This document shows, one piece after another, positions 794 through 54,046 of a DNA stretch of 56,462 nucleotides; within the stretch, counting starts at the first letter, position 1, and the number at the start of each line of letters is the position of its first letter. The DNA is from a virus. The notes below the pieces were generated by a model. It ran no database searches and was not told where the DNA came from. It saw only the letters and a program-made list of their open reading frames with translations. Location: the IMG/VR virus record IMGVR_UViG_3300021139_000017; one strand, 5' to 3'. The position numbers and the translations under genes are program-made.

Positions 794-1642
794 ATGCACG
801 CCCGCCCGATCCTATTCACCGGCGAGATGGTGCGCGCCATCCTTGCCGGCCGCAAGACGCAGACGCGGCGCACCATCACACCGCAGCCATCATCTGTTGA
901 ATACTGGGCAAAAGGCAAGCCAAGTGATCGGTTTAATGGCATGGCCGTGCTGCGCGATGCGGATGGCAGAGGCTGGTCCAGTTGTGGCGCGTTTCGCTGC
1001 AAATTTATCGCCGATGGAATGTGCGCCTTGCTCGGTGGAAAATTGGGGAACTCGAACCTTGAAGACAGGACCGAACGCAAATCGCTGCTCTGGGTGCGTG
1101 AGACATTCTGCAAGCCTGATAAACAGAATCCTCGTTATGCTGGAATGGTTGGAGATTATGTTTATCGGGCGGACTACGAATATCGGGAGCCTGCCAGAAG
1201 CGTATTGGTAGATTGCAAATGGAAGCCATCCATCTTCATGCCGCGCGCGGCTAGCCGCATCACACTGGAAATCGTCGCGGTGCGCGTGGAACGGTTGCAG
1301 GACATTAGTGAAAAGGATGCGAAGGCGGAAGGCGTCCAAGCCAGAGGCTTCAAGATTGAAATCTCGCCAAAAGACCTTTTGGAAATCTACATCAACCAAG
1401 GCCTCAAGTGTGCGCTCACCGGCTTGCCGATAGACTTCAAGGCGAAGAAGTGGTTTCACGGAACGGCATCAATAGACCGCATTGATAGCAAGAAAGGTTA
1501 TATCGCTGGCAATGTTCAATGGGTTCACACTGACATCAACAAAATGAAACTGGATTTTCAGCAAGATTATTTCATCCAAATGTGCCGCCGTGTGGCGAAC
1601 ATTGGCGGTATCTGGCTGGACGAAAACAAAGGAAAGGTATGA
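794..1642 (+). CDS. ASCH-like (PUA-fold) domain fused to an HNH-like nuclease module
   Basis: ATG at 794, 3 nt after the upstream stop. The N-terminus (PILFTGEMVRAILAGRKTQTRR ... LWVRETF ... WKPSIFMPRAASRITLEI) matches the phage ASCH-like family. The C-terminus (ASIDRIDSKKGYIAGNVQWVHTDINKMK) matches the phage HNH/homing-endonuclease-type motif. Confidence 0.6.
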   Translation: MHARPILFTGEMVRAILAGRKTQTRRTITPQPSSVEYWAKGKPSDRFNGMAVLRDADGRGWSSCGAFRCKFIADGMCALLGGKLGNSNLEDRTERKSLLWVRETFCKPDKQNPRYAGMVGDYVYRADYEYREPARSVLVDCKWKPSIFMPRAASRITLEIVAVRVERLQDISEKDAKAEGVQARGFKIEISPKDLLEIYINQGLKCALTGLPIDFKAKKWFHGTASIDRIDSKKGYIAGNVQWVHTDINKMKLDFQQDYFIQMCRRVANIGGIWLDENKGKV

Positions 1643-2304
1643 GTTACCACAGGAGACGGACCTTCTCTTTGAGCCTTGGCGATTGGCTGGATGACGAAGT
1701 GCCGATTGAATGGCTGGCAGAAATGTTGGACACCATCCGGCAATGCGCCGATGTGACGTGGATTCTCTGCACCAAGCGGCCGGAGAATTTTAAGGAGCGC
1801 CTGACGCGGGTGATGATGTGGTTTGAGAATACGCCCTGCACCAAACAAGGCACTGCTACATGGAACTGGGTTTTGAACTGGGTCACCGACATCACCGGGG
1901 TTTGCGCTCCAAAAAACATCATCCTGCTCACCAGCGTCGAGAATCAGGAGCAGGCCGACAAGCGCATCCCTGAACTACTCAAGATACCCGCCGTGTGCCG
2001 AGGCTTGAGCCTTGAGCCGCTGCTTGGGCCGGTGGATTTGGTTTCCAAAAAAGGAACAGCGGCTAACCGCTCAAGCTGGATAGCAAAACAATCGAACGAA
2101 CCAAATATCCATTGGCTCATCATCGGCGGCGAGTCAGGCCCAAATGCCCGCGAAATGGGACTTGGTTGGATTCATTCATTGGTCGCACAAGCTGATGCGG
2201 CTGGTGTTCCAGTGTTCGTCAAACAGGACAGCGGCAAAAAGTCTGGATTGCAAGGTTGCATACCTGATGAAATTTGGAACAGAAAGGAGTTTCCAAAACT
2301 ATGA
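1639..2304 (+). CDS. Gp37/Gp68 (DUF5131) family protein, apparently lacking the N-terminal Cys-rich segment
   Basis: ATGA start/stop overlap with the upstream gene. Motifs seen: FSLSLGDWLDDEVP, WILCTKRPENF, LLTSVENQ, RGLSLEPLLGP, WLIIGGESGPNAR, PVFVKQ. The family's usual first ~60 aa (IEWT...GC..CYA) are absent. Confidence 0.65.
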   Translation: MSYHRRRTFSLSLGDWLDDEVPIEWLAEMLDTIRQCADVTWILCTKRPENFKERLTRVMMWFENTPCTKQGTATWNWVLNWVTDITGVCAPKNIILLTSVENQEQADKRIPELLKIPAVCRGLSLEPLLGPVDLVSKKGTAANRSSWIAKQSNEPNIHWLIIGGESGPNAREMGLGWIHSLVAQADAAGVPVFVKQDSGKKSGLQGCIPDEIWNRKEFPKL

Positions 2305-3473
2305 ACCCGCAACCGACACTTTGGGAAGGGGAGAGGAAAACGCTGGCCGACTCGCTGGACATGACAGCGCAGAGTCTCAACGCTTACGGCGCGGATTACG
2401 ACCATTGGGCAATCGCATTCAGCGGCGGCAAAGACTCATCTGCGACCGTCGCCGCCGTGGTCTATCTCATCGAGCAAGGCAAAGTAAAAGCGCCGAAATC
2501 TCTAACGGTCATCATGTCTGATACTCGCATGGAATTGCCGCCGCTGTTCTCAACAGCCATGAAGATCATGGGCGAACTCAAGGCGCGCGGCGTCAAAACT
2601 CAAGTGGTCATGCCGAAAATGGATGACCGCTTTTTCGTCTATATGTTCGGGCGCGGTGTTCCGCCGCCGTCGAACACTTTCCGTTGGTGCACCGCGCAAC
2701 TCAAGATCGAGCCAATGGTGGATGCGTTCAAGGCGCTGCGGGATGAATACGGCCAAAAATTCTTGATGCTTACAGGCGTCCGCATTGGCGAAAGCGCAGC
2801 GCGTGACGCTCGCATCGCTGTTTCCTGTGGCAAGAATAATTCCGAGTGCGGGCAAGGCTGGTTTCAGGAAGCCACACCGGAAGCCGTCGCCGACACGCTC
2901 GCGCCGTTGCTGCATTGGCGTCTTTGCCATGTCTGGGACTGGCTGACCGGGCAGCATGAACTTGAACCACACGGATTTTCAACTTCACTTATTGCCGCTG
3001 TTTATGGGCAGGATGAAAACCTAGAGACACACGCCCGCACCGGCTGCGTTGGATGCAACCTAGCAAGCCGCGACTTCGCGCTTGAATCCATCATCCAGCG
3101 GCCACAGTGGAAGCATTATCACCCGCTGATGGAACTGCGGCTACTGTATGCCGAGCTAAAGCGTCCGCATTGCCGCCTACGCAAGGACGGCAGCGAAACC
3201 CGCCAAGATGGCTCGCTCGTCGCCAATCCGTGCCGCATGGGGCCGCTGACGTTCGACGCTCGCAGGTTCGGTCTGGCTCGCATCAAAGACATTCAGACCC
3301 GCGCTGGTGTTGACCTGATTAACGCCGACGAGGAAGCGCGCATCTTGGAATTGATCGAGTCGCAGACTTGGCCGCGTGGCTGGGATGGCAGCGAACCGAT
3401 GGCGTCGGACATCTTCGACAACGTGAACCCCGACGGCAGCGTCCAACCCATCATGCGCGAGTTGATGACATGA
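2301..3473 (+). CDS. DndC/SspD-like PP-loop ATP pyrophosphatase (PAPS-reductase superfamily)
   Basis: ATGA overlap with the upstream gene and an AAAGGAG Shine-Dalgarno site. SGGKDS P-loop, MSDTRMELPP, FGRGVPPPSNTFRWCTAQLKIEP and GVRIGESAARD are typical of DndC. GCVGC lies near the C-terminus. Confidence 0.75.
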   Translation: MNPQPTLWEGERKTLADSLDMTAQSLNAYGADYDHWAIAFSGGKDSSATVAAVVYLIEQGKVKAPKSLTVIMSDTRMELPPLFSTAMKIMGELKARGVKTQVVMPKMDDRFFVYMFGRGVPPPSNTFRWCTAQLKIEPMVDAFKALRDEYGQKFLMLTGVRIGESAARDARIAVSCGKNNSECGQGWFQEATPEAVADTLAPLLHWRLCHVWDWLTGQHELEPHGFSTSLIAAVYGQDENLETHARTGCVGCNLASRDFALESIIQRPQWKHYHPLMELRLLYAELKRPHCRLRKDGSETRQDGSLVANPCRMGPLTFDARRFGLARIKDIQTRAGVDLINADEEARILELIESQTWPRGWDGSEPMASDIFDNVNPDGSVQPIMRELMT

Positions 3474-3670
3474 ATTTGACTTTTGATTTTACCGGGTTAA
3501 AACCAAAATATCCCACCGCGCATAAATCGTCGGTGGATGGTCGTTCAATTTGCTGTGCTGTATGCAAACTGTTTTTTAACAGTTATGGTATTCCACAGCG
3601 CGTTTGGAACCGAATGAGTGAATGTCAGCGCGCGGATTATTCGAAAAATGAAACGCGAAACCACGTTTAG
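3470..3670 (+). CDS. hypothetical 66-aa protein
   Basis: ATGA overlap with the DndC-like stop. No recognisable motif. Overlaps the next gene by 23 nt. Confidence 0.35.
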   Translation: MNLTFDFTGLKPKYPTAHKSSVDGRSICCAVCKLFFNSYGIPQRVWNRMSECQRADYSKNETRNHV

Positions 3671-4121
3671 CCATTGCCGCAAATATCGCTACACCCTATG
3701 GCGCGAATTTGAATGCGATGATATTTTTCAGCCGGCACAGTTTTTTAATAGCTTTGCACAATTTATTTGTCTGAATCCTTCGACTGCTGACGAAAACAAT
3801 GATGATCCAACCGTGAGGCGATGCATTCAATTTTCAAAAGATTGGGGATATGGCGCTTTCTGCATGACAAACATTTTTGGATTTCGAGCGACTGATCCCA
3901 ACGTGATGAAGGCGCAGGATGACCCTATCGGCTGCGACAACACCAACCAGATTCGGGAAATTGCTGAACATGCTGGAATTATAATTGCCGCCTGGGGACG
4001 ACATGGATTTCATCTTTATCGCCAAGCTCAAGTTTTAGACGCACTTCAGCCATGGAAAGAAAAGGTCCATTGTCTTGGGTTGGATGGAATGGAAACAGGA
4101 TTGCACCCGCCATTCGGCTAG
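3648..4121 (+). CDS. DUF1643 family protein
   Basis: ATG at 3648. Motifs CRKYRYTLWREF, FICLNPSTADENNDDPTVRRC, GYGAFCMTNIFGFRATDP, IIAAWG and a C-terminal HPPF(G) match the DUF1643 pattern. Confidence 0.6.
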   Translation: MKRETTFSHCRKYRYTLWREFECDDIFQPAQFFNSFAQFICLNPSTADENNDDPTVRRCIQFSKDWGYGAFCMTNIFGFRATDPNVMKAQDDPIGCDNTNQIREIAEHAGIIIAAWGRHGFHLYRQAQVLDALQPWKEKVHCLGLDGMETGLHPPFG

Positions 4122-4269
4122 CAGTTATTGGCTGGCGAAGACTGGCGAAGCGGCGAAGATTGCAACTGCCCTGGCGCATTCTGAATCGGTCATGCGTAAA
4201 AATTATATGGCGCTCGTTACCCAGGCAGACGCAGAAAAGTTCTGGCTTTTGAAACCAAGCCTCATTTGA
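4075..4269 (+). pseudogene. C-terminal remnant of a tyrosine recombinase (integrase)
   Basis: The frame reads QDCTRHSASSYWLAKTGEAAKIATALAHSESVMRKNYMALVTQADAEKFWLLKP. This matches the conserved integrase C-terminus (HDLRHSFASywLa ... LGHS.s.m...hY ... A..fW), including the catalytic-Tyr position. The upstream ~300 aa of an integrase are absent, and the 5' end overlaps the DUF1643 gene. Confidence 0.5.
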
Positions 4270-6735: not shown

Positions 6736-7053
6736 TCATGCTTTTGGTAAATTGCTTGGCGGCATTTCTGCCAAAATGCCTTTTATGTCATCCGCCGATA
6801 GCGAACCATTTTTTTGAATCGTCGTCATGGAGTTGTCCAGAAACGCAATAATTGTAGTGGCAATCGCCAAGACAATATTGGCGTGCATCTTTTGAATTTG
6901 CAGCGGTGTCATGGCGGAAACATCGTCAAAACCTTCAACGGATGCCATCCAGGCGTTGTGTGCCACGACGTAGAGGTAAATGGTCAGCCGCACGGTGGCT
7001 ATCCGCCAATAAAGCGGCAGCGATTCAAAGAAGTTTTTAAGCGGGACTGGCAT
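6736..7053 (-). CDS. two-TM membrane protein (holin candidate)
   Basis: Hydrophobic segments WRIATVRLTIYLYVVAHNAWMA and ANIVLAIATTIIAFL, with a charged C-tail. Lies between the fibre genes and the lysis enzymes. Confidence 0.45.
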   Translation of the reverse strand: MPVPLKNFFESLPLYWRIATVRLTIYLYVVAHNAWMASVEGFDDVSAMTPLQIQKMHANIVLAIATTIIAFLDNSMTTIQKNGSLSADDIKGILAEMPPSNLPKA

Positions 7054-7054
7054 A

Positions 7055-7378
7055 TTAATGAGAATGAATAAAGTAATGAATGGTTTCGACGGCGGCCGCA
7101 GTCAACGTGGCCGTGCCTACGATGATTGTTCCAAGCGTCGTAACTGCTTTAGCCATGCCCATGCCATTGTTTTTAACGTCTTCCAGCGCCCGCACCCTAG
7201 GCTCTAATGTGCCGCACGATCCCGGTGATGAGCATGGAGGATTTGCGTTAATATAAGCCTCTATTCTTGCAAACCGTTGAAGCAGTTCCTTGGTATCGCT
7301 ATGGATTTCTACCAAAGCAGGTTCGGCAACGCCGCGCCACGCTTTTAAGTTTGCCACCTCTTGCTGCATATCTTGCAT
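7055..7378 (-). CDS. coiled-coil protein with a C-terminal TM anchor (holin/antiholin/spanin-like candidate)
   Basis: The N-terminal part looks helical/coiled-coil. The C-terminus AVTTLGTIIVGTATLTAAAV is a single TM segment. Confidence 0.45.
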   Translation of the reverse strand: MQDMQQEVANLKAWRGVAEPALVEIHSDTKELLQRFARIEAYINANPPCSSPGSCGTLEPRVRALEDVKNNGMGMAKAVTTLGTIIVGTATLTAAAVETIHYFIHSH

Positions 7379-7382
7379 AGAT

Positions 7383-7739
7383 TTATTTCTGATTTACACC
7401 TAGCCCCGTCGGTGCAGGAAATTGAATTATTGGCATCATAAATTGGTTTGTATCAAACAAAATTGGGGTCGCCATGCTCGAGGCTTCTGCCCCATTCCCC
7501 CAAGTTGAGCAGATCGTCAACCAACTCCCATTAGGCACCTGCTGGATTGGGATGTTTGTTGTCCCGGTATTGCACGAACCAAACCAGTGATTTGTGGCTG
7601 TGTTGTTTGTTGGACACCAATAAGCAGCATAGCCATTAACTCCATTCGTCGCATCAGACTGCGATGGAACGAATCCAAGCGAAAAGCTTTGCCCCATTGT
7701 TTGAGCAGCGATTAGGATAAATAACAAAATGAATTTCAT
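7383..7739 (-). CDS. small secreted Cys-containing protein
   Basis: ATG at 7739 overlaps the upstream stop (ATGA). MKFILLFILIAAQTMGQS is a signal peptide. The mature part has 3 Cys and is N/T/G rich. Confidence 0.55.
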   Translation of the reverse strand: MKFILLFILIAAQTMGQSFSLGFVPSQSDATNGVNGYAAYWCPTNNTATNHWFGSCNTGTTNIPIQQVPNGSWLTICSTWGNGAEASSMATPILFDTNQFMMPIIQFPAPTGLGVNQK

Positions 7740-9400
7740 TGAATTTGAAGTAGCGCATTGGTTTTCCAAGGCGTAACCGTGAAAAGCCAATTATTCGAGC
7801 AAACAATTTTAACGACCCCAGGAACAGGTATAAAGTTGCTAGCGTTGTAGTTTGTCGCCAGTAAAGTTGTGGTGTTAGTTAATCCGCCACCATTTCCAAA
7901 GAATTGTTCACCGGCAGGTAATTGAAAGCCGTTTGTGGTTAAGGTTGCCACCAGATTGGTGGGAGTGGCCGCTGTGGCAATGAACCATTGCTCGCCGCTG
8001 TTGGTGTTGAAAATGTAGTTGCGCACCCAGCCTGGCGAGCTACCGATCGGCGTGTAAATGTAGCCCACGTCATTCGCATAACCGCCGGCATTGAAGTTGG
8101 TGTAGTTGGCCGAATTGTAATAAAATCCGAAATAATTCTGCACATCCGACGTGCTACCGGGCTGATTCAAATACCAACCCGTCTCGGACGCGCCGTTGGT
8201 GTTCAGGTTTTGAATGACCACCTGGACATAGGTGTTGGTATTCCCAAGAACCGTGAGCGCATTCTGAAAATTGTTGCTGATGGTGTTGAGAGCAATATTA
8301 GTCAGTCCGGCTCCGTTGCCGATGATTATACTGCCAGTGGCAATGACGAGATTTGAATTTATGGTGACGTTGTTCGTCGTAATATTGATTGATCCGAGCG
8401 GAGAATAGCCAAGATTGACGATATCTTGATTCTGGTCAGCTTGGAAAATGGAATTACCGCGCACGTCATTAACCAGCGTCAAACCCGTCCCGCTGAACTC
8501 AAGCGACGGTGGCTGTGCATTAATTCCAAGGATTGCGCCAAAATAGCCCGACACCGTGGAGTGATGGACATACATGACGTTTGTGTCTGCCAGAAAGAAA
8601 TTAGCCTCTGGAAAAATTACGGGTGTGCTATTGGACTGAACCAACCCCAGTGTTGTCGAGTTGGTGAAATAAACATTCGCCGAATAAAGCGCGGTTTGCG
8701 AATACCCTAAATAATCCTGCTCTGCCAGTTGCGTGTAATTCGTCCCAGCGTGCGTCAGCCAGTAGTTACCGCCAATCCAGTTTGTAAATTTGATGTTTTC
8801 ACCAACAAAAAAACCTGCCCCGGCATCATAGACCTGAACCCCAATTTGGTTTGTTATCGTGTAATAAATGTTTGTGACATAAGAGTCTTGGATCGGACCT
8901 GTTGTGGCCGTTATAAAAGAATATGGCGAAGAGACACTTGTTATTAAATTATTGTAGTAAAAAACCCCATTTAAGCCCGTTCCGGCCCAATTCATTGCGG
9001 TGATGCCATTCACCGTATCAGGCAAAGTGCCTGAAGGAATAAAGTAATTGGTTGTGCTGACGCTGTATGGCGTTGCCACAGTTACGGCAAAATTAATTCC
9101 AAGATGCTGATTGGTAAAAATCACCACGCCATTCGTCAATGCTGGATAATTTGCAACATTAAATGTTTTCGAATCACCTGGATACCAAACCCCTCCAACG
9201 ACCACGGATCCTGCCGCCGGCGCCACACTTACCGAGCGCACTAACGCCGGAAAACCTCCGGACAACGATCCGAAATAAAATGCCACATTGTTGCTTTGTG
9301 CGGATGAAATGACCGCGCCGGCCAAGAAGATGGCAAACGCGGAAGTGAATAAGAAGCACGCCTTAAATCGGCGTGATAATGGAAAGCGTCTGGCAGTCAT
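7736..9400 (-). CDS. tail-fibre-like protein (554 aa) with an RR-containing signal-peptide-like N-terminus
   Basis: N-terminus MTARRFPLSRRFKACFLFTSAFAIFLAGAVISSAQS. N/T/S/G-rich beta-type composition. GNGAGLTNI and GNGGGLTN motifs resemble the G-x-G-x-GLTN repeats of phage tail fibres. Confidence 0.6.
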   Translation of the reverse strand: MTARRFPLSRRFKACFLFTSAFAIFLAGAVISSAQSNNVAFYFGSLSGGFPALVRSVSVAPAAGSVVVGGVWYPGDSKTFNVANYPALTNGVVIFTNQHLGINFAVTVATPYSVSTTNYFIPSGTLPDTVNGITAMNWAGTGLNGVFYYNNLITSVSSPYSFITATTGPIQDSYVTNIYYTITNQIGVQVYDAGAGFFVGENIKFTNWIGGNYWLTHAGTNYTQLAEQDYLGYSQTALYSANVYFTNSTTLGLVQSNSTPVIFPEANFFLADTNVMYVHHSTVSGYFGAILGINAQPPSLEFSGTGLTLVNDVRGNSIFQADQNQDIVNLGYSPLGSINITTNNVTINSNLVIATGSIIIGNGAGLTNIALNTISNNFQNALTVLGNTNTYVQVVIQNLNTNGASETGWYLNQPGSTSDVQNYFGFYYNSANYTNFNAGGYANDVGYIYTPIGSSPGWVRNYIFNTNSGEQWFIATAATPTNLVATLTTNGFQLPAGEQFFGNGGGLTNTTTLLATNYNASNFIPVPGVVKIVCSNNWLFTVTPWKTNALLQIQ

Positions 9401-9426
9401 GCTATTAAACTTAAAAAGTCAATCCG

Positions 9427-10638
9427 TCACGGCCCCATCTGTTTCGTGTAAGTCGTAGTCCCGTTCGTCGAGCCGGTCAGGTAGAAAAATCCATTGCTGC
9501 ACCACATGCGGCCCCCCTTCTGATTTCCGAGGTCGGAGATTGTCGGCGTGTTGGTCTGCACCCAAAGGCTGAAAGCGTTGCCGATGGTCAATGGCGCGTA
9601 AAGGTTGGCCGTCGGGATGGCGGCTGTGCGCGGCCAAAAGAACATCTCCGGTTGCGTCGGGTAAATCGGAATGGTGAACGTGACTACACCGGCATTGGTT
9701 GAAATCGTGTAATTCGTGTAGGTCGTCCAGCCGTTCAACAACGACAGGTTTGTGCTGGATGAAATCACAAACGCTGACGGCAAATTTGTCTGCGGAATGG
9801 CCAAGAGCAAATTCGTCCCGGTGCCGTCAAGGCTCAACGAGTTGTAGAGCGTCACCGTCGGAAAGCCGATGTCGAAAGCCGTCCCGCCGAAGTGGCTGAC
9901 GATCTGGTGAAAATAACCGTTTGTGTCCGTGTTGTTTTGCCATTGGCCGGCAACCATGTTCTGCTCGGTCATGTCAACATAGTTTTTCGTCGCGGCATCC
10001 TGTGGCACAATCGGGTCACTGAACTGCGTGAACTGCCCATAGAATCCGTTTGTGCGGTTAATATATTCAGGGTGATCGACCGTCTGAATCACGACCGAGC
10101 CAAGCCCGCCGCCAGCGCCGACGACGGCCAGCGAATAAGTGTTTGTGACATTGACGTAATTCGTCAGCACGAACCACCCGGACGTTCCGTTTGTCGAAGC
10201 CCACACCTGCTCAAACACGTTTGTTGGAAAAGCCACGCCGCCGCCCCCAGCTTGGCCCGGCGAGAAGCTTAATTTCGTCCAACCGTTCGTGAACCGGCCC
10301 ACATAATTCGACGTGCCGAACGCCCAATAGTTTGACGAGAAGATTGTGAACTGCTGACTCGACAAAACGCTGTTGGATAGCGTCAGCACGGAATTGGTTG
10401 ACCCCCCGCCGCTGGATTGCGCCAGATTTGGTGACAGTGGATTCAACATCACCGCCCCGTTGGTATAAATGAAATCCACGGGCGAGAACCACATGTCAAT
10501 CGGATGGCCGTTTGCGTTCAGCACGCCGGGCGGCGTCACCGTCAGCACGGCGGACGGATAGTTCGTCGTGACGTTGAACGATTGCGAGTGCGCCAGCGCC
10601 AGCCAGCCGCACACAATGAGGATGAGGATGTTTTTCAT
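9427..10638 (-). CDS. tail fibre protein (403 aa) with a signal-peptide-like N-terminus
   Basis: ATG at 10638 gives MKNILILIVCGWLALAHSQS. The internal motif DPIVPQDAATKNYVD is the classic tail-fibre (P..DAATK.YVD) motif. Confidence 0.65.
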   Translation of the reverse strand: MKNILILIVCGWLALAHSQSFNVTTNYPSAVLTVTPPGVLNANGHPIDMWFSPVDFIYTNGAVMLNPLSPNLAQSSGGGSTNSVLTLSNSVLSSQQFTIFSSNYWAFGTSNYVGRFTNGWTKLSFSPGQAGGGGVAFPTNVFEQVWASTNGTSGWFVLTNYVNVTNTYSLAVVGAGGGLGSVVIQTVDHPEYINRTNGFYGQFTQFSDPIVPQDAATKNYVDMTEQNMVAGQWQNNTDTNGYFHQIVSHFGGTAFDIGFPTVTLYNSLSLDGTGTNLLLAIPQTNLPSAFVISSSTNLSLLNGWTTYTNYTISTNAGVVTFTIPIYPTQPEMFFWPRTAAIPTANLYAPLTIGNAFSLWVQTNTPTISDLGNQKGGRMWCSNGFFYLTGSTNGTTTYTKQMGP

Positions 10639-10645
10639 AATAGTG

Positions 10646-12979
10646 TCAGTAAAAGGTGACGGAGCCGTAAAACGAGCGGGTCTTGCACGTTTCGCATTCG
10701 CCCTGAATCTCGGTCGAAATCCATTGCGTTGTGTCAGACCAGCCAAATGAAGTGATACAGCGGTTGTTGATGATTTCCGACACGCTGCCATCGGTGTGAA
10801 TTTCCAGACGATTCGGCGGCAACGCGGGCTTTTGGCCGATGGTTGGCGGGATGGTTGGCGGCGGCACAGTGATTTGAATTGGATTGTCATTGAACATCCG
10901 CCGCGCTTGATCCACGGCCTGCCACATGCCGTAACCGTTGGCCAAAGTTTTGCAGACACCATTCAGCGTGAAGGAAATGTAGGGAGGACAATTCGCGGGC
11001 GGCGGCACAGGCGGCGGCGGCGAGTTTGTGCCAGGCGTCGGCGTGTAAGGCGGCGGATTCGTTGCCGGAGCCTCGATGACGTAGGTGAACTGGTAGGAGC
11101 CGGGCGGCGTCCCGTAAATGGCCCCGTTCGGCCCGATATACCACCAACTCGTGTTGGTCGTGGTGAACATCACTTGCGAGTAAGGATTTCCAATTAAACC
11201 GTAGCCAATCCAGTTAGCATTGTTGGAAATTGCAAACCAAGTGTTAGATGGCGGAATCATCGTAACATTGGTTACATAGGGTGAAGCTCCAACACTGCCC
11301 GTCAATGTGATGGTTTCATTCGTCAATGGTAGAATGGTGACATTGTTGGTCAGTGCGTAATAAAACCACCACGCATTCGAGTTGTAGAGTGCCCAGCAAG
11401 TGATGTAGGAATACTGGTTCGTCAACGTGCTGTTGGTGTAAATCAGATAGGCCGTGTCAATCGGCAGAAAAACCGATGAGCGATTGCCGGTCGGATTGGT
11501 GACGATGATGGACGAAACCTGCCAGTTGTAATTCGTGGACATGGCCGCGAGCTTCAACACTTCCCCGCACGCGTTGGTGAATGAACCCAGCCCCCATTGC
11601 GGCGACGGATAAAATGGCCCGCTGTTGTTCGGACACGTCGGCCCACCCATGACGAAGCCGCAAGCGTTGGTGTAAATGAGCGAAAGAAAGTTTGTGCCAT
11701 ACTGGTTGACGACAGGCGGAATGTTCGTGTCGAGGATGTAAGGGCCGGCAATGTTTGTGCAGCCCGGCAGATAAATCGCGTTGCTGTAATTGATGAAGCC
11801 GCACGCATTCGTGTAGGCATTCGCGGCAATGTTCGTGTTCAAATAATACGGCGGTGCCATGTTGGTGCAGCCGGGATTGAACACCTTGTTGGACACGCTC
11901 ACGAAACCACACGCATTCGTGTAGAGGTTGTTCGTCCAAAGCAGATACGGCGGCAGACCGTTCGTGCAAGCCGGATTCGTGCTGGTGAGGATGAAGCCGC
12001 ACGCATTGGTGAACAACCCCGTGCCAAGATTCGTCGCCGCGAAATACGGTGGCCCGGCGTTCGTGCAAATCGTCGGGTAAGGATTCGTGAACGTCGTCAC
12101 CGTCATGTTGCTCGACAGAACGAATCCGCAAGCGTTCGTGTAGAGATTATTCGTCCAGAACCAAAACGGCCCGGCAGAGTTCGTGCAAGTTACCGGGAAA
12201 AAATTCGTGTAGCCCGCAATGCCGTTGGTCAACATCGCCATGCCGTTCGCGTTGGTCACAACACCCGCGCCGATGCCGGGCGCGGCGAAATACGGCCCCG
12301 CCGTGTTCGTGCTCGATGCCGGATTCAGAATCAGCGCGGACTGCCCGCAATCGTTCGTGAAATGAAAACCGTCCACCGAATACCAGCCATCCGGGCAGTT
12401 GGTCGGCGCGGGAAAGCTGATGCCGCCAAGACTGGTGATCGGATAAAACGGATTCGTGCTGGTGAGCGTGAACGTGTTGGAGATCGTCAAGTTGCTGCCG
12501 ACGCCGTTCGTGATGGTCAGATAATTCGTGCCCGCACTTCCACCCGGCCCGCCCACCGTCGCGGCGATGTTTGTCATCAGCGTCAGCAACGTCGAGTTCG
12601 TCGGTGCGTTGGCGCTGACGATTGAGCCGATGGCCGCAGAACCAGCCGAGGAAAATGTGTTCGCTGCCGACAGCCCAATGACGACGCCATTGAGCCAGAA
12701 GTTTGTCAGGCCGGACGGCGGCGGGTTGGTGGCAATCCAGTTGTTGAGCCAAGCCCAGTTGCCATTAATGTCCAACTGCGTTTGGTGCAACGATTCGCCC
12801 ACCGTAACCGAATTGGTCTTGGTGTTCGTCGCCGCGCCGTTGGTGACTACGCCGGGAATGGTGATGCTCGACGTGGTGACATTCGTTGTGGTGTAGATCG
12901 TCGTCGTGTCGAGGTTGGTGAGTTGGGCGCGAGCCGTCATCACCAGCATCAAGAGTGTCAGGATGGATTTTGTTTTCAT
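10646..12979 (-). CDS. fibre-like protein (777 aa) with a signal peptide and about 8 Cys-pair repeats
   Basis: ATG at 12979, 4 nt after the upstream stop, gives MKTKSILTLLMLVMTARAQ. Internal repeats end in (Y/F)TNACGF. A Pro-rich stretch PPPYTPTPGTNSPPPPVPPP lies near the C-terminus. The upstream 115 codons of the track ORF overlap the previous gene and are rejected. Confidence 0.65.
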   Translation of the reverse strand: MKTKSILTLLMLVMTARAQLTNLDTTTIYTTTNVTTSSITIPGVVTNGAATNTKTNSVTVGESLHQTQLDINGNWAWLNNWIATNPPPSGLTNFWLNGVVIGLSAANTFSSAGSAAIGSIVSANAPTNSTLLTLMTNIAATVGGPGGSAGTNYLTITNGVGSNLTISNTFTLTSTNPFYPITSLGGISFPAPTNCPDGWYSVDGFHFTNDCGQSALILNPASSTNTAGPYFAAPGIGAGVVTNANGMAMLTNGIAGYTNFFPVTCTNSAGPFWFWTNNLYTNACGFVLSSNMTVTTFTNPYPTICTNAGPPYFAATNLGTGLFTNACGFILTSTNPACTNGLPPYLLWTNNLYTNACGFVSVSNKVFNPGCTNMAPPYYLNTNIAANAYTNACGFINYSNAIYLPGCTNIAGPYILDTNIPPVVNQYGTNFLSLIYTNACGFVMGGPTCPNNSGPFYPSPQWGLGSFTNACGEVLKLAAMSTNYNWQVSSIIVTNPTGNRSSVFLPIDTAYLIYTNSTLTNQYSYITCWALYNSNAWWFYYALTNNVTILPLTNETITLTGSVGASPYVTNVTMIPPSNTWFAISNNANWIGYGLIGNPYSQVMFTTTNTSWWYIGPNGAIYGTPPGSYQFTYVIEAPATNPPPYTPTPGTNSPPPPVPPPANCPPYISFTLNGVCKTLANGYGMWQAVDQARRMFNDNPIQITVPPPTIPPTIGQKPALPPNRLEIHTDGSVSEIINNRCITSFGWSDTTQWISTEIQGECETCKTRSFYGSVTFY

Positions 12980-12983
12980 AATT

Positions 12984-15695
12984 TTAGGAGCCGTCGGGAA
13001 CGCCGAGCAGCAAGAGCGAGTTTTCCAGATCGTTGAAGATTTCAACGGACATCGGGAATTGAGTTTTGGAAACCACCATTTGCCCCGGATACGACAGGCT
13101 GTTGAATGGATAGTTGGCCAGATGGCGGCTGAAAAAGTTGACGAACGCGCCGCAGTATTCAAACGCCGTCGGACTGTAACCGCCGTTGCCGAAGCCGTAT
13201 TGTTGCGCGTGGAAAAGCGGTTGCCAGTTCGCCAGCACTTCCAGAATGATTTGCGTGTTTGCCTGATAAACGATTTCCGTCCCGGCCAACACCGGCCAGA
13301 ACACCGAGACGTTTCCCGTGTCACGGCCCGCTGCCGGAATGGTAATGGTGAACGGACTCACGCCATCGGCCTTGAAGAATGGTTCAAACACCAGCGAGCC
13401 GTCCCACGCCAGCCGGTTCTGCCCCACGGTGACGACGATGGCCGCGCCGCTGGTTGGCGTTACCATGATTCCGTCCGTGTTCGCCACGGGCAGACGCCGG
13501 GCGCACAGATTGAAAATGCAGTAGCCGTTTTGCGGGATTGGCTTCTGCCCCCCGGTTAGTGCCGTGTAGCCGATGTCCACCCGCGCATTCCCCGTCAGGC
13601 AATTACTGAAAGGCTCATTCGCCAGCGGGAAGTATTGCCGCGCCGGAGCCGCCGAAAAATCCATCTCGACGACGATGGCAAACGACACCGCCACGCCGTT
13701 CGTGTTCTGGATCGTGAATCGGAAATCACCAAGCCCATTGATGATGTTTTGCAGATAGTTCGCGCCGCCCGCGTTCGGAATGACCACGGAGTTACCCGCC
13801 GCAATCACGAAATCGTAAGTCGCCGGGTTCGCCGGATTCGGCCACCCAGCTTTCGTGCTGACAAAGATTTTCAGATTGGATGCCAGCGCGGTGCCCGCGC
13901 TTAACTGGCCATTAACCCAGCCGAGTCCTGGCGTTCCGGGTTGAACCAACGTCAGCTTGATCCCCACGCAAGTAGATGCGGCCACAAAACCGAAGTCCGA
14001 AAACGAATAGTTGTTGGATGCCCCGGCCAAAAGCGTCTGGCTGGCACTGGTGTTGAGGCGCGACTGATAGTTTGAACCGAGATTGAACGGGACAAAATCC
14101 GTATCCCGCAACACCGCCCACGTCGCCGCCTGTGTCTGGCACGACTGATTGATGATGTTGAAATAATGCTCGCCCGAATCGTAAGCCACGCCGCCGATGG
14201 TGAGGTAGTATTCGCCACGGTCGAACAGCGTCATTTGCCGCATCGAGCTTGCTTGAATCGGAAAGAACGCCGGAACTGGATTGTCGAGATAGTCCGGCAA
14301 CAGATTGAACAGACCCGGCGAGCCTGCCACACCGCCGCCGCTGCTACCGTAGCCGCTGACGTATGGCGGAATGTCGTTGTCGAGAAAAACATTCAGCCCC
14401 GGCGTCGGCAACGTCATCGCCACCCAGACGCCTTTGACGGTCGCGTCCGACAACTGCCAGAATGAGCCGTGCGCCGTGCCGTTGAGCGTGAACGCCGCGC
14501 CGACACCCGGCCCCGTGATGGCGTAGCCGTTTGAGCCGGGATGCACCACGTTGACAGGTTTGAACGCCGCCGTGCTGCCAAAGCTCAATGACGAGGTGTA
14601 GGCGGCATAAACTCCCACCAATGGATAGGGATTTGAATTGAGCGTGTAACCCGCCGCTGGATTGGCAGTCAGCGTGATTGTGCCGCTGCCCGGCGCAATG
14701 ACCGTCGTGAAGCTCGCCACCAAAAGAAAGTTGCCCGGTGAAACGGTCTGCGTCGTCCAGACTGGCGCGACTCCGATTGCCGACGGAGTGAACGCCGCCG
14801 CCGCGGGCAATGCCGCGCCCGTGAAGCCCCACGACACTGTAACCGTCCAAGTGCCTTCCGTGTCGGCAACGTAATTCAACGTCGCCGTCTGCGCCACCCC
14901 AGCCGTTGCGCCGGTCAAAAGTTGGCCGCTGGCATTTCTGCCGGCTGAAACCGAGAACCCTGGCTTGGCATCCGCCGCCGCGTAATAAAACTGCACGTTC
15001 TTGAAAACCGTCATGCCGCCGTAATCGCCGAGCAACTGCCCTTGGACGGTCTGCGGGAATGTCACCGGATCGTTGACGCCGACACACCAAGGCCCGCTCA
15101 AAACCGCCGCTGGCGTCAAATACAGCCCGGCATTGATTGGCACACCGGCATTCGCCCCAAAGAGCAGCGTCCAGTAATCGCCCCGGATGCGGTTCAATTC
15201 CTGCCGCCAGTTTTTCAGGTTGAGTTGCACCGAAGCCGTCACCGGCAGGTAAGGCGTCCCGTGCAGAATCGCCGACGTGCAACCGTAGGACTGGATAAAT
15301 TCGCCGCCCGGATTGGCGTCCGCGTTGTTGTAATAAAACGAATTGCCGGATGATGTCGGAAACGTAATGCCCGAACCCGCCGCCGCTTCGTTCGCTCCCG
15401 CCGTCCAGTTGTAAAACCGCTGTGCGAGAACGGCCAGCGTGTAATTGCCGCTGCCGTCATACGTCGCACCGGGCGGAACGAGATTGATGCTCAACGTGCC
15501 GTTGCCGAAGTTATAGGCCGGTTGCGGATAAACCAGCGTCGTCTGGTTGGCGTCAACGAAGTAGTCGAACGACTGCGAAATCGGCCAAGTTCCGGCCCAG
15601 ATAGCCGCATCCACAAGCGGTTTCAAAACCTGATTGGCCAAGGCCGCGAGTCCGGCAAAGTCGTTTTGCGAGATGATGGCTCCGCGCGTTGGCAT
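12984..15695 (-). CDS. large baseplate/central-fibre (Tal-position) structural protein, 903 aa
   Basis: Long ORF in the tail module downstream of the tape measure and the Dit-position gene. No signal peptide. No specific motif recognised. Confidence 0.55.
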   Translation of the reverse strand: MPTRGAIISQNDFAGLAALANQVLKPLVDAAIWAGTWPISQSFDYFVDANQTTLVYPQPAYNFGNGTLSINLVPPGATYDGSGNYTLAVLAQRFYNWTAGANEAAAGSGITFPTSSGNSFYYNNADANPGGEFIQSYGCTSAILHGTPYLPVTASVQLNLKNWRQELNRIRGDYWTLLFGANAGVPINAGLYLTPAAVLSGPWCVGVNDPVTFPQTVQGQLLGDYGGMTVFKNVQFYYAAADAKPGFSVSAGRNASGQLLTGATAGVAQTATLNYVADTEGTWTVTVSWGFTGAALPAAAAFTPSAIGVAPVWTTQTVSPGNFLLVASFTTVIAPGSGTITLTANPAAGYTLNSNPYPLVGVYAAYTSSLSFGSTAAFKPVNVVHPGSNGYAITGPGVGAAFTLNGTAHGSFWQLSDATVKGVWVAMTLPTPGLNVFLDNDIPPYVSGYGSSGGGVAGSPGLFNLLPDYLDNPVPAFFPIQASSMRQMTLFDRGEYYLTIGGVAYDSGEHYFNIINQSCQTQAATWAVLRDTDFVPFNLGSNYQSRLNTSASQTLLAGASNNYSFSDFGFVAASTCVGIKLTLVQPGTPGLGWVNGQLSAGTALASNLKIFVSTKAGWPNPANPATYDFVIAAGNSVVIPNAGGANYLQNIINGLGDFRFTIQNTNGVAVSFAIVVEMDFSAAPARQYFPLANEPFSNCLTGNARVDIGYTALTGGQKPIPQNGYCIFNLCARRLPVANTDGIMVTPTSGAAIVVTVGQNRLAWDGSLVFEPFFKADGVSPFTITIPAAGRDTGNVSVFWPVLAGTEIVYQANTQIILEVLANWQPLFHAQQYGFGNGGYSPTAFEYCGAFVNFFSRHLANYPFNSLSYPGQMVVSKTQFPMSVEIFNDLENSLLLLGVPDGS

Positions 15696-15698
15696 GGG

Positions 15699-16073
15699 TC
15701 ACATCCAGACGCCGGTTGTGGTTCCCATCGGCAACTGCATCCAGAAATTATTGCCCACCCACGGCGGCTGATTCGGCGTCGTCACGCTGGTAATCCGAAC
15801 GTATGTGCCCGCGTTCGCACCCAAACTGACGATGCAGATGTCCCCAAGATTGTAGTTTTTGGTGGGATTGTATTCGCCGGTGATTGGAAGCGACAAATGC
15901 TGTGAAATATTCGGGCTTTTAACGTGGAATCTTGTTCCGCGAGTCGTCTGTTCAACTTTGACTGTCTGAGAATCAAAAAACTGCAATTCATCCAGCCGGC
16001 CCAAATTGCGATTAATAAAATCGCTCATTGCATCGTTTCCTGAAGCATCTTTGCTGTTATTTTTCGATCTCAT
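15699..16073 (-). CDS. tail/baseplate-module hypothetical protein (124 aa)
   Basis: ATG at 16073, 1 nt after the upstream stop. The longer track ORF would overlap the upstream gene. Confidence 0.45.
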   Translation of the reverse strand: MRSKNNSKDASGNDAMSDFINRNLGRLDELQFFDSQTVKVEQTTRGTRFHVKSPNISQHLSLPITGEYNPTKNYNLGDICIVSLGANAGTYVRITSVTTPNQPPWVGNNFWMQLPMGTTTGVWM

Positions 16074-16074
16074 A

Positions 16075-16941
16075 TTAACGCGGCTGGTAACGGATATTCG
16101 ACCAAAGCCCGAGAGCATATTCGACCGTTCGCTCAATCATGAAGTTGGCCATGCAAGGTTCGCGGCCAATGGTTTTTTTCCAGCCCCATTGGTAGTAGGG
16201 AGCTTCGCTCGTTGGGGCATATTGAAAAGGCTGTGCCGAAATTTCCGAATATAGCCTTGGAGGCAAATTGTAAGTCCATCCGCTTCCGACTTCGGTTAGC
16301 AACTGCGCTGGCGTGTAAATGCAATTTTCATAAGCAATACCGGAATTGTAAGTGGCCCCAGGACTGCAATAACTCGTGTGCCGCAAAACTTTTGACGGCC
16401 GCTCAAATTCAACCTGTCCTTTTAAAATTTCCAAAACCAATTGGAGCGATCGACCGTCTGTCGGAATCGCGTGCGGAGCATTTGCAGGAATGTTTGCGTC
16501 AGCATATGCAACCGCCCCCGAAAGACTGCCGCCTTGAGTGGCTAAAACGCTCAACACATCCTTGTCATTGGTTGTCATCCAGCCGGTAGATCCCACAATG
16601 AGTGGGTTATTAAAAATTGTGTCCGTGGTTTCATTCGACAAAAGCTCCCAAGAATCAAAGTAAAGCTCGGTTAAAATGGATCCAAGGCTATTAACCAACC
16701 CTGGCACAGATACCTCGAGACTTTTTACCTCTGCGCTGGTTACACCGTCAATGCCCACATCACAGCCGAGAAACGATCCTGATGCGCCAAACTGAATGAT
16801 GTAATTGTAATAATTAACGAGCGGATCCAGCGTCAGGCATGACACGGTAAAATGCGTCGTTGTTCCCTTTGGTCCGTAATCAATTTTTAACGGCCCAAAA
16901 GTAAGCCCTGCGTATCCAATACCTTGTTTTTGTCCTGCCAT
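16075..16941 (-). CDS. distal-tail (Dit-position) protein, 288 aa
   Basis: Sits immediately downstream of the tape-measure gene (3-nt gap). The call rests on position and size only. Confidence 0.45.
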   Translation of the reverse strand: MAGQKQGIGYAGLTFGPLKIDYGPKGTTTHFTVSCLTLDPLVNYYNYIIQFGASGSFLGCDVGIDGVTSAEVKSLEVSVPGLVNSLGSILTELYFDSWELLSNETTDTIFNNPLIVGSTGWMTTNDKDVLSVLATQGGSLSGAVAYADANIPANAPHAIPTDGRSLQLVLEILKGQVEFERPSKVLRHTSYCSPGATYNSGIAYENCIYTPAQLLTEVGSGWTYNLPPRLYSEISAQPFQYAPTSEAPYYQWGWKKTIGREPCMANFMIERTVEYALGLWSNIRYQPR

Positions 16942-47483: not shown

Positions 47484-48289
47484 TGGATTTCCTTCAATTT
47501 GGCTTCGGTGGCGGCGATGGCTTTTTCAAACCGAGCAACGCTTAAATCCGGTGCAGCCTCGGGGATGGCTCCATCAAGCACCTCGTTTTGCCAACACCAT
47601 TGGTTATGCCCATTCCAATTGGTGCGAACCCATGCAGGATCTTGACTGACCACAGGCTTTAATAGGTTCCAAAGCTTCGTGGCCAGTTCCTTCACGCTCA
47701 AATCCCTAGATGCAAGCGTTGATGGACCTGCTGGGCGCGGCTTATGGCCTTGATTGCCATCGTCATCCTCTCCCACGATAGTCAGGTTGAAGATCATCGC
47801 CGTGAGATAGCGCCGGCCATAGCTGAACGTCGAACCCTCTCCATGAATCTTGGTCTTGCTCGCGCTGCCCTTCATGCCCATGTCGTCAGGTGACAGGTCA
47901 ACGTGGTAATCTTCCGAATGGCCACCCATGCTAACCTTGCAGGTGACACGGATCTTTGCCGGATTGGTCGAGTCGCCCTCACTGAATTTGAGCGAGAACT
48001 TGTATTTCTCTATGACCGGCATGATGGCCTTGGCCATCGCTTCTAGCTTGGCATATTTGGAATTGGTCGAAGGGTTGGTTGACCGCTTGATTATCATTGG
48101 CATTTCCGCCTGTGCCGCCGCCATCGCTTCGTTGAACTGTAATTCAGCCTGTCGCGCACACATTTTCTGGTGCATGTCCAAAAGACGCTCCAACTTATTA
48201 ACGTCAATCTCCGGGTCTTTTGCTGCGGACATAATGGCCGTCATCAAAGATGGAGTTTGGTCTTTATCTATGGTTGCCAATTCATTCAT
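47480..48289 (-). CDS. ERF-family single-strand annealing protein
   Basis: [24 protein letters not shown] ... [31 protein letters not shown] fits the ERF superfamily signature. Confidence 0.75.
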
Positions 48290-48786
48290 GCGGTTGCCTT
48301 TTTTGTTTGGGATTGTTGGTTGCTTTTACGGCTGTTTTGAACCTGCTGTGATTGGGTTGCCCAGCGGCAATTAGATGGTTCGTAATTGCCGTTATTATCA
48401 ATTCGGTCTAGGGATTTCCCCGCTGGACGCGGCCCCATATCTGCAAAGAAATTCTCGAATGATTCTAGCCAGCGCGGACAAACCTTGATTCCACGCGCGC
48501 CGTAATACTTAAAGCTCGTGCTGTTTGGATTTAGGCAGCGAGCCTTCATCATTGACCAAATTTTATGCTCCGTGGTTTTAGTCATACCATGAACTGATCG
48601 GCGAATATTGCTCAATCCAGTTCCGCAACCACACGACCTAGAAAGCCCATGAACCACATTGTAAGAATCAACGAGCTTTGTTTTCCCGCATTCACAAAGA
48701 CAAAGAAGAACGGCTTTTCCATTCCGTTTTAATCCGGATTCTTGGACGGTAAGCCTTCCAAATTTTTGGCCGACAATAGTATTCAT
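48286..48786 (-). CDS. HNH-like/AP2-type phage nuclease-family protein
   Basis: GQKFGRLTV...[11 protein letters not shown]...SCGC...[74 protein letters not shown] is the standard pattern of this common phage family. Confidence 0.6.
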
Positions 48787-54033: not shown

Positions 54034-54046
54034 ATTCGATGCGCCT

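Follow-up and report, generated by a model that had tools for sequence, protein, structure and literature searches.

A catalogued DndC-like PP-loop enzyme among apparent deletion remnants in an early accessory operon of a virus genome

The window discussed here, the whole 56,462-nucleotide stretch of virus record IMGVR_UViG_3300021139_000017, carries a rightward accessory operon that crosses the end of the circularly permuted genome and runs to position 4121, with gaps between genes of -41 to +31 nt. At its head lies a 24-nt promoter/operator copy (55384-55407, + strand) that is the exact reverse complement of 54040-54063, in agreement with the original prediction that the operon shares the operator of the early leftward promoter. 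No convincing + strand terminator was found between this copy and 4121. The last part of the operon, all on the + strand, comprises a 282-aa ORF (794-1642), a 221-aa DUF5131 ORF (1639-2304), a 390-aa PP-loop protein (2301-3473), a 66-aa Cys-containing protein (3470-3670) and a DUF1643 gene (3648-4121), followed by an integrase remnant (4086-4269). These ORFs are chained, as had been described, by ATGA overlaps at 1639-1642, 2301-2304 and 3470-3473 and by a 23-nt overlap at 3648-3670, which can be read directly from the sequence.

The PP-loop protein is intact and stands alone. It belongs to the PAPS-reductase superfamily and to PHROG 12882, whose profile it matches over its full length (residues 9-385 on positions 8-402 of 404; E 1.5e-144); Pfam PAPS_reduct (PF01507) matches as well. 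The two predicted motifs, AFSGGKDSS and FRWCTAQLKIEP, are both present. Among 38 homologues, S41, G43, K44, D45 and S46 are invariant and G42 is at least 90% conserved. Six cysteines (C130, C176, C183, C209, C249, C252) are likewise invariant and may serve as [4Fe-4S] ligands, as in DndC. With the DndC of DndABCDE systems the protein shares the SGGKDS PP-loop and a cysteine-rich core including an R-x-G-C-x-G-C motif, but it is shorter (390 aa against profiles of 447-481 positions). The AF2 model has a pLDDT of 83.6, and its top PDB fold matches are PP-loop enzymes.

Which enzyme is it? The description of the protein as DndC-like holds: PADLOC ranks DndC (E 8e-35) above BrxP (1.9e-18) and SspD (6e-11), and the best NCBIfam matches are DndC and PRK06850. 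Among the PADLOC models, one for a type II methyltransferase whose N-terminal half is PAPS-like matches as well (E 7.7e-25). The protein is not a DndC equivalog, as its score against TIGR03183 is 115.9 bits, below the curated cut-off of 290.4, and linkage to DndD/DndE is absent, though the SGGxDS motif is present. Identity with SspD or BrxP was likewise rejected. The SspD match covers residues 38-165 only and the BrxP match residues 17-177 only, and the best 25 of the 37 families matched by PADLOC include neither SspB/C partners nor a DUF4007 domain or the BrxC/Z/L partners.

Another candidate is an auxiliary CysH-type PAPS/APS reductase of sulfur assimilation that boosts host cysteine synthesis, a role proposed for other prophage 'PAPS reductases' (bioRxiv 10.64898/2026.02.18.706556). 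The PAPS_reduct match would fit such a role, as would an invariant ECG motif within a flexible loop and a plant APS reductase as the top fold match in the PDB (E 3.9e-6). However, no CysH equivalog appears among the NCBIfam matches, the protein has a canonical ATP-binding SGGKDS loop in addition to its six invariant cysteines, and the genes near family members serve DNA metabolism (methyltransferases, Mom, nucleases and replication genes), with no sulfur-assimilation gene among them. An assimilatory reductase is therefore very improbable, in line with the original prediction.

Known phosphorothioate systems all require an ATPase partner, which is DndD, SspC or BrxC (PMC12914056), and none of the three is encoded in the phage. 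As predicted, DndC-type matches fall on the PP-loop protein alone. Neither DndA/B/E nor SspA/B/C was detected among the 65 window ORFs by Pfam or among the best 25 of the 37 families matched by PADLOC, and the match of a phage AAA_23 ATPase to DndD is confined to the P-loop (E 0.0085). The same is seen in relatives: no DndD/DndE-type cluster was found near 81 PAPS loci, DndA/B/D/E were not among the conserved neighbours at 160 PAPS-centred loci, and no DndD was found in the four Verrucomicrobiota genomes that carry the closest prophage copies. DndD-type systems were nevertheless found in 12 of the 301 genomes sampled from the phylum that probably contains the host.

A DndC-only phage cassette with these partners had been thought undescribed, but a stand-alone phage gene of this kind is already known. 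Full-length PHROG 12882 proteins, 50-53% identical to the window protein over 96-98% of its length, are annotated in cultured phages; examples include the DndC of Pseudomonas phage phiC725A (SCA90816.1) and proteins of Rhizobium phages RR1-A and RHph_N28_2, Pseudomonas phages Dobby and vB_PaeM-D14A, and Microcystis phage Mae-JY29. Stand-alone phage 'DndC/PAPS reductase' proteins form 4,717 clusters at E<=1e-20, and JGI has attached the label 'DndC' to thousands of metagenome clusters of the family. The window protein is thus of a catalogued type, within a very large and already annotated phage family. In the PHROG 12882 phages the gene occurs singly in the early/replication region, often beside DNA methyltransferases; by contrast, the methyltransferase in the window lies ~14 kb off in another early operon, and the flanks of the PP-loop gene are deletion scars.

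Are the flanking genes partners of the enzyme? HMM counts at the 160 PAPS-centred loci gave a C5 methyltransferase in 55 (34%), DUF5131 in 28 (17.5%), ASCH in 12 and DUF1643 in 4 (2.5%). Reverse counts found PAPS in one of 30 DUF5131-centred and one of 80 DUF1643-centred loci. DUF5131 is nevertheless enriched about 7-fold near PAPS genes (28/160 against 2/80 by HMM counts; 17/80 against 2/80 in a BLAST-based subset, Fisher p = 3e-4). The gene directly adjacent to PAPS is a C5 methyltransferase at 17 of the 160 loci and DUF5131 at 9, so that DUF5131 may be a facultative partner of PAPS genes. On the PAPS tree, DUF5131 proximity requires 27 changes for 29 positives, and relatives of the PP-loop protein at 76-88% identity occupy unrelated contexts. 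The PP-loop gene is a single-gene module that has been reshuffled among very different phage contexts.

The piece of DUF5131 found here (PF07505; Gp37/Gp68) matches its Pfam profile well above threshold (135.8 bits against a gathering threshold of 28.9), and PHROG 2045 strongly over the barrel part. The family is placed in the radical SAM superfamily, Megacluster-5-2, by RadicalSAM.org (PMC9477430). Alignment to the Pfam HMM confirmed the predicted N-terminal truncation: only profile positions 69-216 of 243 are covered, and positions 1-68, which hold the three-Cys motif, are missing. The closest homologues are 327-358 aa long with the N-terminal Cys motif in place, and an uninterrupted allele (L083) has 86.6% nucleotide identity starting exactly at 1637, at codon Met95. 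The motif, GC..(V)S.GC..CYA, is present in two homologues (P0002, L008) and in the N piece of a split allele (L278), and it is absent throughout the 56-kb genome together with the N piece that carries it.

The 282-aa ORF upstream of DUF5131, which lay outside the original discussion, is a chimera, and it explains the DUF5131 truncation. Its 5' part (794-1336) is an ASCH-domain gene without the last ~40-60 codons: residues 1-187 match positions 65-215 of the 277 in phrog_874, and the alignment with eight ASCH homologues ends at ...AKAEGV, before their C-terminal W..IN..NPWVWV.EF block. Its 3' part (1337-1642), fused in frame, corresponds to the last ~55% of an HNH homing-endonuclease gene, with the stop codon overlapping the DUF5131 start. 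Residues 179-282 of the chimera share 84% identity with residues 90-193 of the HNH ORF in L278 (phrog_374/3322), and DNA homology to L278 begins at 1348. A complete homing endonuclease of either family, with both a catalytic HNH core and an N-terminal DNA-binding module, was rejected. The core is retained (phrog_3322 positions 62-148 of 162), while the first 89 residues of the L278 ORF, its N-terminal module, are missing.

The split allele gives the order of the intact arrangement: a 91-aa DUF5131-N piece (WSGCTKVSDGCKNCYAE), the 193-aa HNH ORF, and a DUF5131-C piece that begins MSYHRRR, as the window piece does, with an ATGA overlap. A similar gene in pieces is reportedly found in Aeromonas phage Aeh1, where nrdA is split by the free-standing homing endonuclease mobE. 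In L278 the HNH gene lies inside DUF5131, with separate N and C ORFs and overlapping stop and start codons. The window differs from the Aeh1 type in having lost the N piece together with half of the endonuclease gene, and only a remnant is left. In relatives DUF5131 can be split in this way, the N piece with the Cys motif being followed by the HNH gene and then by a C piece that starts with an ATG in overlap with the stop codon of the endonuclease. A deletion in the window lineage took the 3' end of the ASCH gene, the DUF5131 N piece and the beginning of the endonuclease gene, leaving the in-frame ASCH::HNH chimera and an orphan C piece. The sequence comparisons show this origin for both products. 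The DUF5131 fragment is probably inert and unable to bind the radical-SAM cluster.

The 66-aa protein belongs to a rare family. Its homologues of 60-71 aa (E 4e-19 to 7e-7) share the pattern C..C(K/R)(L/M)(F/W).N..G(I/V)P.R.W..MS.C.R..Y. A DUF1643 protein was expected to end the set. The gene is there (PF07799, E 4e-38), but its 3' end is not intact: the last ~12 codons are non-native and ~10 C-terminal residues are lacking. DNA homology to its closest relatives is limited to 3648-4057. Against an alignment of 39 sequences, the invariant H153-P154 of the C-terminal P..HPLYL block is kept in register, the near-invariant P151, L155 and Y156 are replaced, and the protein ends early, without its tail.

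Overlapping the end of DUF1643 in a different frame, positions 4086-4269 encode ~60 codons from the 3' end of a tyrosine integrase. The remnant matches the catalytic C-terminus (W..D..RHS...H...Y) of an integrase with a Pfam Phage_integrase domain (L004; BLASTP E 2e-9), and a second match was found in L148. No further integrase or recombinase Pfam match is present among the 65 window ORFs. A complete catalytic domain (R..H-x-x-R..H/W..Y) was looked for and rejected, as only RHS...H...Y is left. A second deletion joined DUF1643, stripped of its native C-terminus, to these last codons of the integrase, as comparison of the sequences on either side of the junction shows.

Does this arrangement recur? 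The exact DUF1643 protein is present on 14 contigs from independent JGI, ENA and Logan samples, one of them from 2009. Eight retrieved contigs with the DUF1643 junction are 99.9-100% identical to the window; two (L290, L291) cover the whole arrangement and the others the DUF1643 end only. This recurrence shows that the arrangement is real. Speaking against a reading as wreckage, the remnant ORFs all remain open and coupled, DUF1643 keeps its His-Pro, and dN/dS against relatives is low (0.04-0.10), although this value gives no date for the deletion.

The DUF5131 C piece and the chimera could have been kept because the deletion gave them a new function, such as that of an ASCH-targeted nuclease for the chimera. 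Both are uninterrupted ORFs, ASCH and HNH are joined in frame, the catalytic core of HNH is whole, at 84% identity to a relative, and the genotype has been stable across its 14 contigs and several samples. Against this, the ASCH fold lacks its C-terminal strands and the endonuclease its N-terminal module, no second sequence with this fusion point was found, and the near-identity of the recovered contigs gives no sign of selection after the deletion. We regard such a new function as decidedly unlikely.

In the original prediction, the four coupled genes from DUF5131 onward act together as one pathway of DNA modification, in which the shortened DUF5131 is a genuine subunit. Tight ATGA coupling, intact ORFs and recurrence of the arrangement across samples speak for this, as do the enrichment of DUF5131 near PAPS and its adjacency at 9 of 160 loci. 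Moreover, an Azospirillum prophage (L242) has a row of DUF5131-ASCH-DUF1643-PAPS-methyltransferase, and in another locus (L199) DUF1643 abuts PAPS. On the other hand, the co-occurrence counts do not support a conserved cassette: they show separate genes, each mostly found without the rest, with DUF5131 and DUF1643 not fixed partners. The small Cys protein is absent from all 289 related loci and co-occurs with none of the other genes. Gene order and spacing vary, and the pairing lacks phylogenetic persistence. The DUF5131 start is the recombination junction of a gene split by a homing endonuclease, its Cys-motif piece is missing genome-wide, and the DUF1643 C-terminus is non-native. Since both genes are damaged by deletion here, translational coupling joins gene remnants and not a pathway; the four-gene pathway is quite improbable.

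Positions 794-4269 are probably the mosaic tail of a rightward early accessory operon, in which an intact conserved enzyme, presumably of DNA modification or counter-defence, is surrounded by the wreckage of two deletions. With one intact, catalogued DndC/PAPS-reductase-type enzyme among the leftovers of broken genes, this is an ordinary patchwork of accessory genes and not a new system.

What might the enzyme do? Its most likely role is in DNA modification or counter-defence, played alone or together with host factors. It would work early in infection without phage-encoded DndD/E-type partners, combining ATP-dependent adenylation with cysteine/Fe-S-bound sulfur in a chemistry on DNA. Host donors would supply the sulfur, DNA methyltransferases might cooperate, and the enzyme would either modify phage DNA or subvert phosphorothioate-based or other restriction. 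Support for DNA as the target comes from the C5 methyltransferases directly adjacent to PAPS genes, the PADLOC methyltransferase match, the gene set of the L288 locus and the DndD-type systems in the likely host phylum. The predicted role in modification or anti-restriction also appears reasonable by analogy with a published case, a PAPS-Dam fusion through which a Vibrio phage escapes Dnd (bioRxiv 10.1101/2021.05.05.442762; cited in PMC13551039). The protein concerned, p0018 of Vibrio phage 44E38.1 (Piel et al. 2022), resembles the window protein in having a DndC-type PAPS domain without Dnd partners, in its link to DNA methylation and in its place within a variable region of anti-defence genes; its architecture, PAPS-domain::Dam, is different, and a second gene was transferred with it. 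Only an N-terminal PAPS domain (aa 4-175) is fused to the methylase in p0018, whereas the window protein is unfused, with its own C-terminal domain.

A substrate other than DNA would be RNA. TtuA and NcsA are [4Fe-4S] tRNA thiolases, and fold matches to TtuA, NcsA, TilS and GMP synthetase equal the APS reductase match; ASCH domains, which are neighbours here, are often RNA-related. The protein could then thiolate or otherwise modify RNA (tRNA) or the nucleotide pool, like TtuA, NcsA, TtcA or TilS. The strongest HMM affinity, however, is to DndC, a DNA-modifying enzyme, linkage or fusion to DNA methyltransferases is recurrent, and neither tRNA genes nor partners for RNA modification were seen, which makes an RNA substrate rather unlikely.

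It is unlikely, though conceivable, that PHROG 12882 PP-loop/Fe-S enzymes lie at the centre of a modular type of phage DNA modification not yet described, with C5 methyltransferases and full-length DUF5131 radical-SAM enzymes as facultative partners. On this view ASCH and DUF1643 would sometimes join, as in L242, and the window would carry a degraded version keeping only the core enzyme. The product might then contain sulfur or be a hypermodified base or backbone, and no DndD/E-type partners would be needed to make it.

As the window shows, what look like partners of the enzyme can be the remains of broken genes; thus, claims of a new system based on neighbourhood need a check of the junctions. 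From the co-occurrence figures for C5 methyltransferase, DUF5131 and DUF1643 it can be judged which partners merit experiments with cultured relatives. That a homing endonuclease can split DUF5131 accounts for many 'N-terminally truncated' entries in databases. Members of the stand-alone phage 'DndC/PAPS reductase' family lie in anti-restriction islands beside methyltransferases and Mom; at one locus (L288), PAPS is accompanied by Mom, by DUF5131 and by an N6/N4 methyltransferase.

The original prediction described 1639-4121 as a translationally coupled modification cassette combining DUF5131, a DndC-like PP-loop ATPase and DUF1643. The observation is real, but reading it as a new four-gene system is unsupported: the region consists of two deletion scars with, between them, a single intact gene from a known phage family. 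The reading frames themselves are present, with Pfam matches on the + strand to DUF5131 (1639-2304), PAPS_reduct (2301-3473) and DUF1643 (3648-4121), and successive frames overlap through ATGA at 1639, 2301 and 3470 and by 23 nt at 3648-3670. The proposed sharing of an operator with the early leftward promoter also holds, as a 24-nt element at the head of the rightward operon (55384-55407) is an exact inverted copy of 54040-54063. From there the operon extends past the window end as far as 4121, with intergenic gaps of -41 to +31 nt and no convincing + strand terminator between the element and 4121. GC content across the region is a mosaic: 56% and 47% in the ASCH and HNH segments of the upstream 282-aa ORF (794-1642), 53% in DUF5131, 58% in the PP-loop gene, 42% in 3474-3647 and 45% in DUF1643.

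Are these genes conserved as a set? Loci were fetched around homologues of the PP-loop protein (80 viral and 80 genomic), DUF5131 (30) and DUF1643 (80), and scanned with HMMs built for this analysis. In the 160 PP-loop-centred loci, C5 methyltransferases were found 55 times, DUF5131 28 times, ASCH 12 times and DUF1643 four times. The DUF5131-centred loci contain six C5 methyltransferases, one ASCH, one PP-loop gene and no DUF1643; the corresponding counts for the DUF1643-centred loci are nine C5 methyltransferases, two DUF5131, two ASCH and one PP-loop gene. Directly adjoining the PP-loop gene, in either order, are C5 methyltransferases (17/160), DUF5131 (9/160), ASCH (3/160) and DUF1643 (2/160); its immediate flanking genes are mostly singletons, and relatives at 76-88% identity lie in contexts unrelated to one another. 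Compared with DUF1643-centred loci, both DUF5131 and C5 methyltransferases are enriched near the PP-loop gene (Fisher p ~3e-4 each; for DUF5131 in a BLAST-based subset, 17/80 versus 2/80 loci). When DUF5131 proximity is mapped on a phylogeny of 161 PP-loop proteins, its 29 positives need 27 changes; thus, this proximity is not inherited as a block. The 66-aa ORF (3470-3670) encodes a real but rare small protein, whose 60-71-aa homologues share a C..C...C motif and which was found in 0/289 related loci.

Similar genes are gathered elsewhere in other arrangements. For example, a 56.8-kb Logan contig (L288) carries a modification island at 6905-16468 with HNH_3, a PP-loop gene whose product is 85% identical to that of the window, DUF1064, Mom, full-length DUF5131 and an N6/N4 methyltransferase. 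In a prophage on Azospirillum sp. A26 chromosome 1 (L242:3354-7903), DUF5131, ASCH, DUF1643, PAPS reductase and methyltransferase genes are contiguous; they belong to the same families as those of the window, but are intact (DUF5131 is full-length) and ordered differently. Counts, adjacency, contexts and tree show no conserved cassette, and the PP-loop gene and its neighbours are best described as a guild whose DNA-modification and anti-restriction genes move independently, rather than as an operon-level system.

To which family does the PP-loop protein belong? It is a full-length match to PHROG 12882 ('phosphoadenosine phosphosulfate reductase'; E 1.5e-144). Its top curated affinities are DndC (115.9 bits, cut-off 290.4) and PRK06850 (123.4, cut-off 536), both scores being far under the cut-offs, and PADLOC ranks DndC (8e-35) ahead of BrxP (1.9e-18) and SspD (6e-11), with a further match to a type II methyltransferase model that has a PAPS-like N-terminal half (7.7e-25). 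The assignment withstood the alternative of an assimilatory PAPS reductase, since none of the CysH models in an NCBIfam search matched. Invariant across 38 homologues are S41, G43, K44, D45 and S46 of the PP-loop, together with six cysteines (C130, C176, C183, C209, C249 and C252). Among PP-loop enzymes, the AlphaFold model (pLDDT 83.6) resembles APS reductase, CysD, FAD synthase and GMP synthetase, as well as TtuA and NcsA, both [4Fe-4S] thiolases. A search of PDB sequences with the single protein returned nothing, and the family profile gave weak PAPS-domain matches only. A DndC-only phage gene is also not undescribed: the family comprises 4,717 clusters at E<=1e-20, many with the JGI name 'DNA sulfur modification protein DndC', and is annotated in the cultured phages phiC725A, RR1-A, RHph_N28_2, Dobby, D14A and Mae-JY29. 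The nearest cellular copies come from assemblies of Opitutus and Verrucomicrobium, consistent with a host in the Verrucomicrobiota.

The PP-loop gene is undamaged and conserved, and it is both autonomous and associated with DNA methylases. We infer a DNA-directed early role for its product, putatively in modification or counter-restriction. The enzyme would act on DNA early in infection by a putative combination of ATP-dependent adenylation and cysteine/Fe-S sulfur chemistry, and the phage DNA would thereby be modified, or phosphorothioate-based or other restriction interfered with. Consistent with such a role, a PAPS-Dam fusion of a Vibrio phage gives escape from Dnd (10.1101/2021.05.05.442762), a 2026 survey places PAPS reductases in the cargo of Aca-regulated anti-defence operons, and DndD-type systems are found in 12/301 genomes sampled from the likely host phylum. 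However, the known phosphorothioate systems all require an ATPase partner (PMC12914056), and DndD is absent from 4/4 genomes with the closest prophage copies. The original prediction had noted that the usual Dnd and Ssp partners are missing; among the 65 window ORFs, DndC-type matches fall on the PP-loop protein only (Pfam, and the best 25 of 37 families matched in PADLOC). The AAA_23 ATPase of the phage (49333-50763) was considered as a DndD surrogate and rejected, as its likeness is limited to the P-loop and it is absent near PAPS genes in other loci.

The most instructive by-products of the analysis are a DUF5131 gene split by a homing endonuclease and a lost integrase. DUF5131 is a member of the radical SAM superfamily (PMC9477430). 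Homologues closest to the window protein, 327-358 aa in length, have a three-Cys motif at the start, and the predicted lack of a Cys-rich N-terminus is borne out, as the Pfam alignment of the window protein covers positions 69-216/243 only. Identity to an uninterrupted allele (L083; 86.6% nt) starts exactly at window 1637, at the ATG that is codon 95 of L083. In a JGI contig (Ga0643774_0000804, L278:2478-4086), DUF5131 is in pieces whose stop and start codons overlap: an N piece (91 aa) that has the Cys motif, carrying WSGCTKVSDGCKNCYAE; a 193-aa HNH endonuclease ORF (phrog_374/3322); and, after an ATGA overlap, a C piece of 255 aa beginning MSYHRRRIFSLSLGDW. Residues 179-282 of the window 282-aa ORF share 84% identity with the C-terminal half of this endonuclease, and the 3' end of the ORF overlaps onto MSYHRRR in the same way. 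Residues 1 to ~181 are an ASCH domain that ends ~40-60 residues before its homologues, including by phrog_874 coverage. Together these comparisons show one deletion, with its junction at ~1337-1348, in which ASCH lost its 3' end, DUF5131 its N piece and the homing-endonuclease gene its 5' ~45%. The N piece was not found elsewhere in the window by tblastn or unfiltered hmmsearch. Because the Cys motif is missing, the remaining fragment would not be expected to bind a cluster; dN/dS against relatives is 0.04-0.10, a value that reflects mostly pre-deletion history. Splitting of this kind may explain many N-terminally short DUF5131 database entries.

Other interrupted DUF5131 genes have different structures. 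Two loci (L279:1285-1951 and L280) have 667 nt between the N and C pieces, where a predicted 184-aa ORF looks non-coding; a group I intron was rejected here, as an Rfam search that included group I and II introns gave no match. The short entries in L282 (3716-4750, immediately 3' of an HNH_3 gene) and L284 (2-956) are not split genes, having a stop or frameshift within or just past the Cys motif, and may reflect errors of assembly or gene decay. The window itself has a complete HNH endonuclease on the - strand (48286-48786; phrog_374, E 5.6e-59), between the ERF recombinase and AAA_23 ATPase genes, which shares an N-terminal module with the L278 endonuclease (tblastn E 1.6e-6). The DUF5131 fragment matches the PADLOC candidate defence models PDC-M41B (E 5e-24) and PDC-M30B (E 5e-22); thus, candidate bacterial defence systems, too, have DUF5131 proteins as components.

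The right-hand scar lies in DUF1643. At the DNA level, it matches its closest relatives only between its start codon at 3648 and position 4057. In a 39-sequence alignment, near-invariant P151, L155 and Y156 are replaced, H153-P154 are retained and ~10 C-terminal residues are missing. From ~4090, a different frame encodes W..D..RHS...HSES...Y, and the match is to integrases in L004 (E 2e-9; Pfam Phage_integrase) and L148 at their catalytic C-terminus, which identifies a tyrosine integrase 3' remnant at 4086-4269 (+). A second deletion therefore joined DUF1643 to this remnant. No further integrase or recombinase was detected among the 65 ORFs, and therefore deletion seems to have deprived this phage, with its repressor-type switch, of its integrase. 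Close DUF1643 relatives are found at early-operon ends in unrelated phages. The predicted fold is confident (pLDDT 87), and its BFVD matches are other DUF1643 proteins only. A uracil-DNA-glycosylase-like fold, suggested by the NPS...HP motifs, was not confirmed by Foldseek against PDB (none below E 0.01), by profile searches of PDB sequences and Pfam at E<=10, or by a single-sequence PDB search, which returned nothing.

Could the junctions be artefacts of assembly? Independent assemblies support them: 14 contigs, from JGI, ENA and Logan samples, encode the identical chimeric DUF1643 protein, and the eight that were fetched match the window at 99.9-100% identity, which makes population dN/dS of the remnants uninformative. 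Two of these (L290 and L291) carry the same row of 282-, 221-, 390- and 157-aa genes, and the remaining fetched contigs cover the DUF1643 end. The sole differences between these two and the window are in the repeat region of a DUF6745 protein (94.9-96.7% secondary matches), which lies across the window ends (1-183 and 56300-56462) and has a long tandem QVSDQVRA-type peptide repeat.
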